A stretch of DNA of 64,000 nucleotides from an uncultured delta proteobacterium (GTDB taxonomy: Bacteria > Desulfobacterota > Desulfomonilia > UBA1062), in the NCBI GenBank assembly GCA_963752595.1, contig CAVVYZ010000001.1:64001-128000 (forward strand), written 5' to 3'. The notes under the pieces are model-generated. The model saw only the letters and a program-made list of their open reading frames with translations, made no database searches and had not been told where the DNA came from. The position numbers were made by a program, and so were the translations under genes. This document shows positions 31,566 through 36,450 of the stretch, piece by piece. Each line of letters opens with the position of its first letter. The stretch's first letter is position 1.

Positions 31566-32237
31566 TCACCGGTGCTTTGCCACACCTGCCTGCCTGCACA
31601 TGTCCAGGATCGGGCAGGTGGAGCATTTCGGGAGCCGTGACGTGCAGATGTGCTTGCCGAAGGGAACGAGCAGCCGGTTGATATCCACCCAGTGCTTTCT
31701 GGGAAGGATCTTTTCAAGTTCCTTCAGGCTCTGCTCAGGTCTCGTCGTGTGTATGTAGCCCCAACGGTTCGGCACACGGTCCACATGTACGTCGACAGAG
31801 ATACGCGGCTGCCCGCAGGCCGCCCCCAGCACCAGGTTGGTGCACTTGGGTCCGACCCCCTGAAAAGACAGGAGCACTTTTTCCTCGCACGGAAGCTCGC
31901 CGCCGTATTCATCCATGATCCGGCAGGCGATACCATGGATGATGCGTGATTTCGTATCATGGAATCTGCAGGCTGAGATGGCTGCATCAATGCGGGCGGT
32001 ATCCAGCACGGCAAGCTCTTTCGGGGTGCGGCCGAGGCCGAAGAGTTCGCGGGCACAGACCAGAGATATCTCATCGAGGGTCCGGATCGTGAGAATACAT
32101 GCGATGAGCTGTTCAAAGGGCGATCTATGCCCTTCATCGGCAAGTGCGAAAAGAGCGGCCTTCGGGAAAGGCTTCACAACCTCCCTTATGAGATTCATGG
32201 CAAGGTCGATGTCAAAAGGACGCTTCCAGGCGCTCAT
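31566..32237 (-). CDS. nth: Endonuclease III (HhH-GPD DNA glycosylase/AP lyase)
   Basis: PFEQLIACIL, HhH GVGPK, VDVHV and the C-terminal CxxxxPxCxxCxxxxxC 4Fe-4S motif. Confidence 0.9.
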   Translation of the reverse strand: MSAWKRPFDIDLAMNLIREVVKPFPKAALFALADEGHRSPFEQLIACILTIRTLDEISLVCARELFGLGRTPKELAVLDTARIDAAISACRFHDTKSRIIHGIACRIMDEYGGELPCEEKVLLSFQGVGPKCTNLVLGAACGQPRISVDVHVDRVPNRWGYIHTTRPEQSLKELEKILPRKHWVDINRLLVPFGKHICTSRLPKCSTCPILDMCRQAGVAKHR

Positions 32238-32606
32238 CTGTAGCCCCTTTCTTTCCTCTGCTATGACTTAGGATAGTGCCGTGGAGAAAAAAATGTATCT
32301 ACCCTTAATTATCACTTGCAATTTTTTCAGGAAGTATTATTAGAAAAATCAAAAGAGGCTCGCTCTTGGATGCGAGAAAAGGGCTCCGGGACACAGCAGA
32401 TTCAGGGAGAGAGTGATACAGTGACGAAGCTTAAAGATCATATCATCACGGCACCCGTCAGCGATGCCGAACGGTATTGAATACCTTTCGATGATACTCC
32501 CTTTCACTCACCTCATCCCTCCCTACCGACACAATCCATTTCAAAAAATTAATACTCAACACAGAAATAATACATGCCGATATTTGACGCAAGGAGGAGA
32601 TTTGAG

Positions 32607-33911
32607 ATGAAGAACAACGGTCCTGCAGTGTCTGTTTCACCCGAAGACCCGGACCCCCTGGGTACTGAGGCCCCCGAGGAGCCCCCATCGATATCGTCGG
32701 CCCTAACCCAGGATTTGTTGTTTGCACCACAACCCGCAAGGAAGTTTCCTTTAGCCGGCCGTATTCCCATCAGCCAACGTTGCCGCCAGTTCTTAAGGGA
32801 TTTCTATCCCCACGCAACTGAAACCGACTGGGCAAGCTGGAACTGGCAGATCCGCAACAGCATCAACACCCCCGAGCAGATCCAGAGGATCATCGGGATG
32901 ACCGTGGAAGAGTTTGATGCCATTCAGAGGCGCACGGCACTCCCCTTCAGGATCACCCCGTACTACGCGAGCCTCATGAGCCCGACGGACCCGTCACAGG
33001 CCATAAGGCGATCCGTCGTGCCGGTGGTCGATGAGTACACCATGAGTCCCGGAGAGGAGCAGGACCCGCTGTCCGAAGAGCACCAGAGCCCGGTGCCCGG
33101 GCTTGTTCACCGGTACCCCGACCGGGTGCTGTTCCTGACAACAGGCTTCTGTTCCACGTATTGCCGCTACTGCACCAGGTCACGCATGGTCGGCAACAAC
33201 GGCAAGTTCCGGAGCAGCATCACGCAGTGGCAGCAGGCCATTGCGTATATAGAGGCCACACCCCAGGTGCGGGACGTCCTCCTTTCCGGAGGAGACCCCC
33301 TGACACTGCCGGACAGCCATCTGGATTACCTTCTGTCAAGCATCAGGCGTATCCCCCATGTGGAGATCATCCGCATCGGCACCAAGGCGCCCGTGGTATT
33401 ACCTCAGCGGATAACGCCGAAGCTTATGAGGATCCTGAAGAAGTACCAGCCTCTCATGATGAGCATCCATTTCACGCATCCCGATGAACTCACTCCGGAA
33501 ACGAAGGCGGCGTGCAATATGCTCGCTGATTCCGGTGTCCCGCTCGGGAGCCAGACAGTGCTGCTCAAAGGCATCAACGATAATGTAGATACGCTCAAAT
33601 CCCTCTTCCATGGGCTTCTCAAGGTCCGGGTTCGTCCATACTACCTGTACCAGTGCGACCCGATCCTGGGCTCTGCTCATTTCAGGACCACCGTAGAAAA
33701 GGGCATCGAGATGATCGAAGGACTGCGAGGTCATACCTCGGGGTATGCGATTCCCCACTATGTGGTCGATGCCCCCGGCGGAGGAGGCAAAATACCGCTC
33801 CTGCCCGATTACTTCCAGGGCCGCGCCGATGGACAGGTTATCCTGAGGAACTACGAGCGAAAAATTTTCCGCTACCCCGAGTATGATGCGGAATGCCCTC
33901 CGGGCGTGTAA
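32607..33911 (+). CDS. kamA: KamA-family radical SAM enzyme (lysine 2,3-aminomutase-like)
   Basis: GLVHRYPDR, CSTYCRYCTR (CxxxCxxC), LLSGGDPL, YYLYQCD and VDAPGGGGK (PLP Lys); SD AAGGAGGAG. Confidence 0.92.
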   Translation: MKNNGPAVSVSPEDPDPLGTEAPEEPPSISSALTQDLLFAPQPARKFPLAGRIPISQRCRQFLRDFYPHATETDWASWNWQIRNSINTPEQIQRIIGMTVEEFDAIQRRTALPFRITPYYASLMSPTDPSQAIRRSVVPVVDEYTMSPGEEQDPLSEEHQSPVPGLVHRYPDRVLFLTTGFCSTYCRYCTRSRMVGNNGKFRSSITQWQQAIAYIEATPQVRDVLLSGGDPLTLPDSHLDYLLSSIRRIPHVEIIRIGTKAPVVLPQRITPKLMRILKKYQPLMMSIHFTHPDELTPETKAACNMLADSGVPLGSQTVLLKGINDNVDTLKSLFHGLLKVRVRPYYLYQCDPILGSAHFRTTVEKGIEMIEGLRGHTSGYAIPHYVVDAPGGGGKIPLLPDYFQGRADGQVILRNYERKIFRYPEYDAECPPGV

Positions 33912-33912
33912 G

Positions 33913-34890
33913 ATGAAGGTCGGCATTACCTATGATCTCAGGGACGATTATCTGAAAGAGGGGTACAGCTCCGAGGAGACCGCCGAGTTCGACCGTGCCG
34001 ATACCATTGATGCCATCGATGAGGCACTCGTTGCACTCGGCCATGCCACGGACCGGATCGGAAACGTAAAGCAGCTCGTCTCCAAGCTCGCTTCCGGCCA
34101 TAGATGGGACCTGGTTTTCAACATTGCCGAAGGCATGTACGGGGTCGGGCGGGAGGCCGTGGTCCCTGCCTTGCTCGATGCATATAAGGTCCCCTATACT
34201 TTCTCGGATCCGTTTGTCCTCTCGCTGACCCTGCACAAGGGCATGACAAAGGCTGTCATACGCGATGCAGGCCTCCTGACCGCCGACTTCGTGCTGGTCA
34301 ATTCAGCAGACGAGATCGATGCCGTACGCCTGCCGTATCCGCTGTTTGCAAAACCTGTTGCAGAAGGTACGGGCAAGGGCATATCCGATACCTCCCGGAT
34401 ATCCTCTCCCGAAGAGCTTCGTTCGATCTGCGAGCGCCTGCTGAAAGAGTTCCGCCAGGCCGTGCTCGTTGAAACTTATCTTCCTGGCAGGGAGTTCACC
34501 GCAGGCGTCGTAGGCACCGGAAGCGATGCGCAGCTCGTCGGCATGATGGAGGTCTTGTTCCGCGACAAGCAGGACGGTGAGCTGATCTATTCGTACCATA
34601 CCAAATCGAACTATGAAGAAATGATCGTATACTCTATCCCTGAGCAGAGCGTGATCGATTCATGCTCAGAGCTTGCCCTTGCTTCATGGAAGGCCCTTGG
34701 ATGCAGGGACGGCGGCCGGGTCGACATCAGGATGGATGCTCAGGGACGGCCCAATTTCATCGAGGTAAACCCCCTGGCAGGGCTCAATCCGGTTCATTCC
34801 GACCTGCCGATCCTGTGCAGGCTCAACGGCATCTCTTTCCAGAACCTCATCGAGCGCATCCTCCTGAGCACTTTGAAGAGAATCTGCTGA
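33913..34890 (+). CDS. D-Ala-D-Ala ligase-like ATP-grasp enzyme 1
   Basis: VFNIAEG, FAKPVAEGTGKGI, GREFT, RVDIR and FIEVNPLAGL; starts 1 nt after the kamA stop. Confidence 0.9.
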   Translation: MKVGITYDLRDDYLKEGYSSEETAEFDRADTIDAIDEALVALGHATDRIGNVKQLVSKLASGHRWDLVFNIAEGMYGVGREAVVPALLDAYKVPYTFSDPFVLSLTLHKGMTKAVIRDAGLLTADFVLVNSADEIDAVRLPYPLFAKPVAEGTGKGISDTSRISSPEELRSICERLLKEFRQAVLVETYLPGREFTAGVVGTGSDAQLVGMMEVLFRDKQDGELIYSYHTKSNYEEMIVYSIPEQSVIDSCSELALASWKALGCRDGGRVDIRMDAQGRPNFIEVNPLAGLNPVHSDLPILCRLNGISFQNLIERILLSTLKRIC

Positions 34891-34899
34891 AGAGCCTTT

Positions 34900-35898
34900 G
34901 TGAAAAAGCCCGTTATAATCCTTCACCAGAAACTGCCCCTTGATGCCTCACCGGATGACCAGGATGTGCTCATCCAGGCGGCAGCGATATCGGATGCGCT
35001 GACGAGTCTCGGCTACCAGTCCTCCATCGTGCCTTTCGAACTCGACATCCACGCGTTGGCTGCCCGGCTCACCCGCATCAAACCCCTGTGCGTTTTCAAT
35101 ATCGTCGAGTCGCTGGACGACGACGGCAGGCTCATACACCTTGCCTGCTCGATCCTGGACCATCTCGGCATCCCTTACACCGGGGCCTGCACCGAGGCGA
35201 TGTTCCTCACCTCGAACAAGGTCCTGGCCAAGAAATGGATGCACAGATCAGGCATCCCGACGCCGGAATGGATTATGCCGGGCAACTCACCCGAGAGCAA
35301 TCTCCCGTTTCCTTCCCTCTACATCGTGAAGGCCCTCTGGGAGGAAGCATCCGTTGGGATCGACGGCGAGTCGGTGAAGGAGGCAAAGGATCTCCCCGGT
35401 CTGATTGTTTCCCTTGAGAAGAGGGCGCATGTCCTGAACAAAAAGTGCTTTGCTGAGCGCTATATCGACGGAAGGGAGTTCAACCTCTCGGTCCTTGGAG
35501 GAGTACGCGGGCCACAGGTGCTGCCGCCTGCAGAGATCACGTTCTCTTTCCCGGACGGAAGGCCCAAGATCCTTGATTACAAGGCGAAGTGGCATGAGGA
35601 TTCGGTTGAATACAGATCCACGCTCCGGACCTTTGAATTCGGAAAACAGGATGCAGGTCTCCTCAAGGAGCTTGAACAGGTAGCGCATTTGTGCTGGGAA
35701 GCCTTTGACCTGAGAGGCTATGCCCGGGTCGATTTCCGGGTGGACGGGGAGGGGAGGCCGTGGGTCCTGGAGATCAACGCCAACCCCTGCATATCGCCGG
35801 ACAGCGGGTTTGTGGCCGCCTCTCAGAGGGCCGGGATGAGCTACCCGGAAGTGATCGCCCGCATTTTATCGGATACCCTGGAGAAAGGCGGGTTATGA
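34900..35898 (+). CDS. D-Ala-D-Ala ligase-like ATP-grasp enzyme 2
   Basis: VFNIVES, GIPYTG, EEASVGI, GREFN, ARVDFR and LEINANPCI. Confidence 0.9.
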   Translation: MKKPVIILHQKLPLDASPDDQDVLIQAAAISDALTSLGYQSSIVPFELDIHALAARLTRIKPLCVFNIVESLDDDGRLIHLACSILDHLGIPYTGACTEAMFLTSNKVLAKKWMHRSGIPTPEWIMPGNSPESNLPFPSLYIVKALWEEASVGIDGESVKEAKDLPGLIVSLEKRAHVLNKKCFAERYIDGREFNLSVLGGVRGPQVLPPAEITFSFPDGRPKILDYKAKWHEDSVEYRSTLRTFEFGKQDAGLLKELEQVAHLCWEAFDLRGYARVDFRVDGEGRPWVLEINANPCISPDSGFVAASQRAGMSYPEVIARILSDTLEKGGL

Positions 35899-36377
35899 AA
35901 CTCTCCTATCGCAGCAGGGTAACACCAGGCGACAGGGACACGGTACGGGCCATCGTTGATTCTACAGGGTTTTTCAATTCAGAAGAGCTGGCTATTGCCG
36001 TAGAGCTCGTGGACGAACGCCTGAGCAAAGGACCGGAGAGCGGCTATCACTTCCTGTTCTGCGAGCAGGGAAGCTCAAGAGACCTTGGATACACCTGCTT
36101 CGGGCGCATTCCGGGTACCGCCTCAAGCTTCGACCTTTACTGGATAGCGGTTCACCGGCAATTCCAGGGACAGGGTATCGGCCGAGAATTGCTCGGCGCT
36201 ACCGAGAATATCATCAGGGAGATGGGCGGTTCCCGCGTCTACATCGAGACCTCCTCCCGGGGCCTCTATCAACCGACACAGGCTTTCTACGAAAGATCAG
36301 GCTATGCCCGGGAGGCTGTCCTCGAAGACTTCTACGCACCCGGCGACAGCAAGATTATCTATGTCAAGGAGTTGTAA
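35895..36377 (+). CDS. GNAT N-acetyltransferase
   Basis: DLYWIAVHRQFQGQGIGRELL acetyl-CoA motif and FYERSGY; ATGA overlap with the upstream ligase stop. Confidence 0.9.
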   Translation: MKLSYRSRVTPGDRDTVRAIVDSTGFFNSEELAIAVELVDERLSKGPESGYHFLFCEQGSSRDLGYTCFGRIPGTASSFDLYWIAVHRQFQGQGIGRELLGATENIIREMGGSRVYIETSSRGLYQPTQAFYERSGYAREAVLEDFYAPGDSKIIYVKEL

Positions 36378-36450
36378 AAGCATTGTTCGCCCGGGGCCGC
36401 GAATCATAATCCCCACAGATAGCTCATCCGATAATTCCCATGATGATACG

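Follow-up and report, generated by a model that had tools for sequence, protein, structure and literature searches.

Pyrrolysine biosynthesis pairs PylB, a radical S-adenosylmethionine (SAM) lysine mutase, with PylC, an ATP-grasp ligase that uses the mutase product. Another ATP-grasp ligase, carnosine synthase, accepts a β-amino acid, and N-acetylglutaminylglutamine amide (NAGGN), a small capped peptide solute, is made by Ngg (GNAT plus ATP-grasp enzyme). The AblA/AblB pathway leads to N-ε-acetyl-β-lysine in methanogens and some bacteria, as cited in two published accounts (PMC3543383, PMC9337991). Here we describe a four-gene cassette in a stretch of 64,000 nucleotides (the window) from an uncultured delta proteobacterium (Desulfobacterota; Desulfomonilia; UBA1062), comprising positions 64,001 to 128,000 of contig CAVVYZ010000001.1 in assembly GCA_963752595.1. 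The cassette, at window positions 32607–36377, encodes a KamA-family lysine 2,3-aminomutase-like enzyme, two ATP-grasp ligases with the fold of D-alanine–D-alanine ligase (Ddl), and a GNAT acetyltransferase. These are known enzyme kinds assembled into an undescribed and very widespread pathway. We found no description of the four-gene cassette in the literature, subscription journals and supplementary tables lying outside the search. The cassette probably builds a cytoplasmic small molecule, an acetylated β-lysine peptide or amide.

The open reading frame (ORF) list places all four genes head to tail on the plus strand. An earlier note on this DNA, made from the sequence alone, had described them as tightly coupled, and its coordinates and spacings agree exactly with the ORFs and junction sequences. 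The kamA gene (32607–33911, 434 amino acids (aa)) begins at an ATG preceded by AGGAGG, within a longer ORF that opens at 32574. Its TAA stop codon (33909–33911) is followed by one base (g) and then by the ATG of ligase 1 (33913–34890, 325 aa). Nine bases separate the TGA stop of ligase 1 from the GTG start of ligase 2 (34900–35898, 332 aa), which overlaps the GNAT gene (35895–36377, 160 aa) in an ATGA.

The same arrangement recurs far beyond this genome. A scan for ligase 1 across one genome per species gave 273 pattern-matched stretches, 220 of which encode a confirmed ligase 1 relative. We surveyed the best 80 loci, several incomplete ones among them stopping at contig borders. Of the 80, 57 have all four genes on one strand in the order seen here, and the arrangement is therefore not due to chance. 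By their titles, the loci span approximately 10 phyla, including Thermodesulfobacteriota, Bacteroidota, Bacillota, Spirochaetota, Planctomycetota, WOR-3, Fibrobacterota, Myxococcota, the Moduliflexus group, and others. The nearest locus, titled Syntrophaceae bacterium UBA6087, shows 89–91% identity, and ligase 1 sequences from Bacteroidota share 55–62% identity with that of the window. Clustering of the 824 ORFs in these 80 loci revealed no other neighbour family in more than nine of them, so the cassette is self-contained and sits in ever-changing surroundings. Nor did a carrier or precursor peptide emerge: conserved small ORFs occur in at most 8 of 58 loci, all from close kin, and overlap the leader.

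Co-occurrence among genomes tells a similar story. The even set of 301 genomes of the phylum consists of kin, so the numbers given here characterise this sample without amounting to a statistical test. A ligase 1-like match at E ≤ 1e-60 is present in 101 of the genomes, with a score above 430 bits in 52. A ligase 1-like gene is carried by 72 of the 201 sampled genera. Ligase 2 is found (E ≤ 1e-75) in 51 of the 52 genomes with a ligase 1 above 430 bits. In the other direction, 65 of the 66 ligase 2 genomes contain a ligase 1-like match. Incomplete versions are also informative. Seven of the 80 surveyed loci have KamA and ligase 1 with no GNAT nearby. Each of the four genomes in which ligase 1 stands alone encodes a cassette-type KamA at another site, and one of these genomes groups that KamA with ligase 2 and the GNAT, away from ligase 1. 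In five genomes KamA and ligase 1 alone stand side by side. Ligase 2 is located elsewhere in three of these and nowhere in two, a complete WOR-3 chromosome and a Bacillota bin. Because these two genomes have no ligase 2, KamA and ligase 1 constitute the minimal pair.

Gene fusions tie the four proteins together more directly. We took called proteins longer than ligase 1 and checked the best 120, counted as protein clusters, by BLAST against the four window proteins. These comprise 79 ligase 1–ligase 2 fusions, 21 KamA–ligase 1 fusions, 16 tandem ligase 1-like proteins, two ligase 1–ligase 2–GNAT fusions, and two ligase 1 proteins with other extensions. Each neighbouring pair in the operon thus exists somewhere as a single polypeptide, with the operon order kept. 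These pairwise fusions are the strongest evidence that KamA supplies a substrate of ligase 1 and that the two ligases act next to one another. Together, conserved order, fusions and co-occurrence mark the four genes as one functional unit.

Some apparent fusions were discarded. Frames of 728 and 448 aa (L107 and L108) are long open frames over real genes at high-GC loci, with the KamA and ligase matches in different frames, and a 1463-aa frame in L110 has no domain outside its ligase part. A separate observation concerns another genome of the phylum (L109:2804–6693), where KamA is followed by a 644-aa double ligase 1-like fusion, a GCS2-family carboxylate-amine ligase and a Peptidase_C26 gene, the last belonging to the gamma-glutamyl-amide hydrolase family. 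This divergent variant hints at gamma-glutamyl chemistry, a single-locus lead that we do not count as evidence.

The KamA protein passes the cut-off of a single NCBIfam model, that of the KamA family (TIGR00238; 345.9 bits, cut-off 199.2). It lies below the cut-offs for glutamate 2,3-aminomutase (421 vs 650) and arginine 2,3-aminomutase (380 vs 600). Residues 66–425 align with clostridial lysine 2,3-aminomutase (PDB 2a5h; E = 1.1e-131). The two lysine-binding Asp motifs to which the earlier note had pointed are both present in this alignment, with YLYQCD over YIYQCD and YVVDAPGGGGK over FVVDAPGGGGK of 2a5h. We take the Asp residues of YQCD and VVDAPG to hold the ε-amine of the lysine side chain, and the lysine of GGGGK to bind pyridoxal phosphate; glutamate 2,3-aminomutase has other residues at the two Asp positions. 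The radical SAM CxxxCxxC motif reads CSTYCRYC in the translation. Across 66 cassette KamA ORFs from related loci, YQCD occurs in 65, [IV]D[AST]PGGGGK in 64 and CxxxCxxC in 64. Judged by these motifs, the KamA active site is intact and of the lysine type, and the cassette proteins form a recognisable subfamily. The window KamA also bears a Pro/Glu-rich N-terminal extension (32607–32770, residues 1–55). Matches to KamA begin at or near residue 1 in the closest loci only, and only between about residues 20 and 66 in most of the distant ones.

This genome encodes a second KamA-family radical SAM protein, of 361 aa and 31% identical to the cassette KamA, on contig 30 at ∼138.7–139.8 kb (L086:1312–2397). 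Translations of the surrounding ORFs read as an apparent low-GC cluster with hexapeptide-repeat acetyltransferase-like and glycosyltransferase-like genes. This protein may be an aminomutase for sugar or glycan modification.

Both ligases match the Pfam Dala_Dala_lig_C domain (ligase 1, 5.9e-26; ligase 2, 4e-21) and otherwise only general ATP-grasp models. They fall far below every curated NCBIfam Ddl and Van cut-off; for the best model (NF002378), ligase 1 scores 143.2 bits and ligase 2 127.8 bits against a cut-off of 243. AlphaFold models of the two proteins are confident (predicted local distance difference test, pLDDT, 90.6 for ligase 1 and 91.8 for ligase 2). Foldseek searches with both models return Ddl enzymes as best matches at 20–27% identity and template modelling (TM) scores of 0.7–0.8 (0.74–0.78 for ligase 1). 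The earlier note had called the ligases divergent from each other, and indeed they are just 27% identical, no closer than either is to the true Ddl of this genome.

Alignment with the two canonical Ddl proteins encoded elsewhere in this genome, which have GGxSxE and HGxxGEDG, separates what the cassette ligases keep from what they have lost. Both retain the ATP, Mg and acyl-phosphate set of the true Ddl proteins (lysines, glutamates and R-x-D ... E-x-N). In ligase 1 the residues common to both true Ddl proteins are K109, K113, K147, E187, R193, E194, K231, R269, D271, E284 and N286; ligase 2 retains the catalytic R276, D278, E291 and N293. Both lack the N-terminal GGxSxE and the HGxxGEDG, as had been noticed from the sequence alone, and in both the Y-x-x-K-Y loop of Ddl is likewise replaced by family-specific motifs. 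The substitutes for the Ddl substrate motifs are TYDLRxDY...AEFD and AEGMYGxGRE in ligase 1, and LHxx...PD[ED]xDVL and VES..G.GRL in ligase 2. Mean column identity across 32 ligase 1 sequences from many phyla is 68%. Since the catalytic set is kept and the D-alanine-binding motifs are replaced, both proteins are probably active amide-bond ligases with substrates unlike those of Ddl. The replaced motifs, the unreached cut-offs and the two canonical Ddl genes elsewhere also sustain the view that these are not housekeeping Ddl enzymes.

The earlier note had further suggested a heterodimeric ligase. A physical pair is plausible given the 79 ligase 1–ligase 2 fusions among the best 120 longer relatives. 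An obligatory heterodimer is unlikely, because two of the five genomes with KamA and ligase 1 alone side by side have no ligase 2. Prediction of a ligase 1–ligase 2 complex gave a score of 0.18 (mark, 0.32), which counts neither for nor against binding.

The GNAT matches Pfam Acetyltransf_7 and Acetyltransf_1. Its best NCBIfam match, rimI, reaches 39.8 bits where the cut-off asks for 86.4. Neither the GNAT (E ≤ 0.01) nor the genome, which is 84% complete, has a match to the AblB model TIGR03827. The GNAT is not AblB, so the operon is not a plain ablAB osmolyte pair, from which the earlier note had set it apart. The sole close solved relative is an uncharacterised structural-genomics entry (PDB 2r7h; E = 9.5e-41), deposited as a ‘putative D-alanine N-acetyltransferase’.

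A fifth protein frequently accompanies the cassette. In four Bacteroidota-type loci, a 580-aa protein with a histone-deacetylase-family domain of the acetylpolyamine-amidohydrolase type is inserted in the cassette. This genome encodes a 586-aa homologue (58% identical) on contig 1 at ∼427.9–429.6 kb (L117:6877–8637), ∼330 kb from the operon and among unrelated neighbours (an RCC1-repeat protein, DUF2254 and a sulfatase). Seventeen of the 301 phylum genomes have the deacetylase; 15 of these also have a ligase 1-like gene, and in seven of the 17 only a few kb separate the deacetylase from ligase 1 on a shared contig. The domain matches Pfam PF00850 (Hist_deacetyl) at 2.2e-71. Its best PDB matches (6phr, 9gkz, 3q9b and 3men) are acetylpolyamine amidohydrolases, at E-values of 5.8e-70 to 8.3e-63, ahead of HDAC6 and the bacterial HDAH. 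The N-terminal domain of ∼260 additional residues has a weak likeness to GNAT proteins. Acetylpolyamine amidohydrolases deacetylate small aliphatic N-acetyl amines, and the acetylated ε-amine of a β-lysyl unit would be a fitting target group.

Other neighbours are occasional. At single loci the cassette encloses an MFS or a DMT_6 transporter gene, or has an Amidohydro_3 gene immediately 3′ of the GNAT. Several further neighbours are recorded here as leads and are not counted as evidence. Two WOR-3 loci with KamA and ligase 1 only have a Peptidase_S58 gene convergent to ligase 1 (L053:4221–5567 and L063:6962–8230); the Peptidase_S58 family includes β-peptidyl aminopeptidases. At three loci (L058, L065 and L081), a cysteine-rich protein of 170–215 aa lies between KamA and ligase 1. 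One of two such proteins scanned matches PF03692 (CxxCxxCC) at an E-value of 1e-3, below cut-off, and the other has no match. An HTH_3-Cupin_2 regulator precedes KamA in L108, and sigma-54 activators adjoin some cassettes.

How might these enzymes act together? In the pathway that we propose, KamA would convert L-lysine to β-lysine. Ligase 1 would then act directly on β-lysine, because KamA is its constant companion, the two are fused in some organisms, and the two-gene versions consist of just this pair. It would form an acyl phosphate on a carboxylate, which an amine would then attack to give an amide, and β-lysine would be one of the two partners. Ligase 2 would add a second amide bond, and the GNAT would acetylate a remaining primary amine. 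Where present, the acetylpolyamine-amidohydrolase-like enzyme would remove the acetyl group again, for turnover or regulation. The product named in the earlier note, an acetylated β-lysyl di- or tripeptide or amide, is still something that we infer; what has gained support is the underlying unit, the lysine-type KamA and the non-Ddl ligases. Its list of roles (osmolyte, polyamine-like compound, or envelope or protein modification) shifts toward a small molecule with an acetylated primary amine, because a deacetylase of the acetylpolyamine-amidohydrolase kind is found and EpmA co-exists with the cassette; otherwise the list is only narrowed. Within the small-molecule reading, we see little to choose between a compatible solute and a polyamine-like cation. 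A bolder version, which we regard as doubtful, is that the two ligases, which many organisms have fused into a single protein, constitute an amide synthetase of two modules that converts β-lysine to a new and widespread class of polyamine-like cationic metabolite of anaerobes, with its charge switched by the GNAT and the deacetylase.

Several observations weigh against this proposal. KamA scores below the equivalog cut-off of AblA, its best NCBIfam model (TIGR03820; 471.9 vs 525.4 bits), and its C-terminus is short, so that LAM_C is matched over positions 1–60 of 127 only. The cassette KamA family as a whole has just 30–47 residues after GGGGK, and most of the clostridial C-terminal domain is missing. 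For these reasons lysine is the likely but unproven substrate. The nearest characterised relatives of the GNAT are protein N-α-acetyltransferases (rimI; Naa30 and archaeal Nat, E-values of 4e-5 to 3e-3), a kinship as compatible with a peptide or protein N-terminus as with a small amine. The leader contains no riboswitch or regulatory signal naming a ligand, as judged by Rfam, a sigma-54 box search and a consensus fold. The hosts are mostly known from freshwater sediment, digester and groundwater records, which give no pointer to salt stress. For the DNA studied here, no RNA data set is listed, and four DNA runs from one freshwater-sediment study contain small shares of it. Finally, the acceptor substrates and the order of steps are conjectured from gene order and fusions only.

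Modification of a protein is one alternative. Here, ligase 1 would do the work of EpmA as an ATP-grasp enzyme, attaching β-lysine to a lysine or carboxylate of a target protein, for example elongation factor P (EF-P) or a ribosomal protein, and ligase 2 and the GNAT would extend and cap the modification. The pairing of KamA with a ligase mirrors that of EpmB with EpmA, some ATP-grasp enzymes (e.g., RimK and LysX) act on proteins, and the kinship of the GNAT with protein N-terminal acetyltransferases fits as well. Moreover, this genome has a lysine-type EF-P loop (KPGKGGA) and, at 84% completeness, no EpmA above the curated cut-off, so that the EF-P version is weakened only and still stands. 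The weakening comes from the wider sample, where EpmA exceeds that cut-off in 113 of the 301 genomes and in at least 28 of the 52 with ligase 1; the two systems therefore co-exist and do not show a complementary distribution. In addition, both ligases are closest in sequence and fold to Ddl, a small-molecule enzyme; the deacetylase is of the small-molecule acetylpolyamine type; some cassettes include transporter genes; and the cassette brings along neither a target gene nor a conserved small ORF beyond the small ORFs of close kin mentioned above. Taken together, we consider protein modification unlikely. A side observation on EF-P is that three efp matches above cut-off lie on contigs 23, 28 and 21 (L114–L116), two of them nearly equal in score (254.1 and 254.0 bits). 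The near-equal pair could be either a recent duplication or part of the 6.8% contamination stated for the assembly.

A secreted antibiotic or signal would give the acetyl group a different purpose, namely self-protection, with deacetylation on release as in β-lysine antibiotics. β-Lysine occurs in streptothricin-type antibiotics, and the GNAT and deacetylase pair, the MFS or DMT genes of single cassettes, the patchy distribution in the phylum (101 of 301 genomes) and a Bacteroidota ligase 1 similar enough to fit horizontal transfer are all in keeping with this idea. However, no exporter, non-ribosomal peptide synthetase, regulator or immunity gene is conserved with the cassette across the 80 loci, the cassette is very common (72 of 201 genera with a ligase 1-like gene) and stably ordered, and the deacetylase of this genome stands alone among unrelated genes. 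A secreted product is thus quite improbable. A plain AblA/AblB route to the osmolyte N-ε-acetyl-β-lysine, with two unrelated Ddl paralogues lying in between, would account for AblA being the best model of KamA and for a GNAT in the same operon. The missing AblB speaks against it, as do the ligase fusions seen in other organisms (with KamA, with the other ligase and with the GNAT), the near-perfect co-occurrence, and the seven loci in which KamA and ligase 1 have no GNAT nearby. We consider this route very improbable. The least credible alternative, to which we attach almost no weight, is that the ligases have nothing to do with KamA and produce D-Ala-D-Ala or a different cell-wall dipeptide. 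Their relatives are named ‘D-alanine--D-alanine ligase’, and the title of 2r7h also mentions D-alanine, but these names were apparently transferred on weak similarity. The scores of 143 and 128 bits against 243, the replaced D-Ala-binding motifs, the two canonical Ddl genes elsewhere, the absence of mur genes nearby and the KamA fusions in other organisms all argue against this alternative. The acetylated β-lysine peptide or amide remains our preferred product.

The remaining features of the locus lie around the operon. Upstream, a 5′ leader and possible promoter region (32320–32606, plus strand) precedes kamA. An alignment of eight close relatives shows that ∼250 nt of it are conserved in sequence, including a TTGCAA box (32326–32331), CATGCCGATA and the AGGAGG ribosome-binding site. 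Rfam has no match in 32100–32750, no sigma-54 box occurs between 32238 and 32606, and the consensus fold is weak (−2.15 kcal/mol) and not convincing. Downstream, the inverted repeat TTCGCCCGGGGCCGCGAA (36386–36404) separates the end of the operon from a convergent BamE-like gene. In a terminator scan it is terminator-like on the minus strand only, the plus strand having no T-run. Pfam searches of the flanking ORFs (26.4–45.1 kb) identify a CoA-ligase-like protein, an AAA ATPase, an HhH-GPD glycosylase, the BamE-like protein, a HEAT-repeat protein, an HD-domain protein, TauE, a ferredoxin and a molybdopterin oxidoreductase. Among these ORFs the searches detect neither lysine-fermentation genes nor epmA, efp or mur genes, in agreement with the earlier note. 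At the genome level, the lysine-fermentation family PF09043 has no match, and its control is likewise matchless, which makes this search uninformative.

About one in three sampled genomes of one phylum carries the cassette, which recurs in about 10 phyla of mostly uncultured anaerobes and points to a common metabolite that is missing from pathway maps. Identifying its product would annotate thousands of genes now called ‘D-alanine--D-alanine ligase family protein’ and ‘KamA family radical SAM protein’, and would extend the ATP-grasp toolbox by a β-amino-acid ligase. A further gain might be an explanation of how the host organisms cope with osmotic, ammonia or polyamine-related stress. If the polyamine-like version is true, a housekeeping small molecule of many phyla has so far been missed by metabolomics. 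The four genes are small and their products soluble, so their function is open to direct test.

Comparison with known systems places the cassette between several of them. As in the AblA/AblB pathway, an aminomutase whose best model is AblA shares an operon with a GNAT. The cassette differs in its two integral ATP-grasp ligases, its non-AblB GNAT, and a KamA that lies below the AblA cut-off and has a short C-terminus; because AblB is missing, it falls outside that pathway. With Ddl and its D-Ala-D-Lac and D-Ala-D-Ser relatives, the cassette ligases share the fold and the ATP, Mg and catalytic residues. Because these residues are kept, their chemistry is likely to be Ddl-like, with an acyl phosphate attacked by an amine. 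Nevertheless, their substrate motifs are replaced, their scores stay below the cut-offs, and their context is KamA and a GNAT, not mur genes. As both substrate motifs and cut-offs fail, the cassette ligases stand outside Ddl.

The likeness to NAGGN synthesis is one of logic, in that an ATP-grasp enzyme forms a peptide bond independently of the ribosome and the product is N-acetylated. However, the ATP-grasp subfamily is another one, and the cassette has no amidotransferase and would start from a β-amino acid made by a radical SAM mutase. The cassette KamA is of the 2,3-aminomutase kind, unlike PylB, which is a carbon-skeleton mutase. EpmB and EpmA likewise join a KamA-family enzyme to an ATP-dependent ligase for its product, but that ligase is a lysyl-tRNA-synthetase paralogue, whereas the cassette employs an ATP-grasp enzyme, and the two systems co-exist in at least 28 of the 52 genomes. 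The acetylpolyamine amidohydrolases (6phr, 3q9b and 3men) are the best match to the accessory deacetylase domain, to which the accessory protein adds its N-terminal domain of ∼260 residues. Overall, the cassette would work like a blend of the AblA/AblB route, Ddl-type ligation and the logic of NAGGN synthesis.

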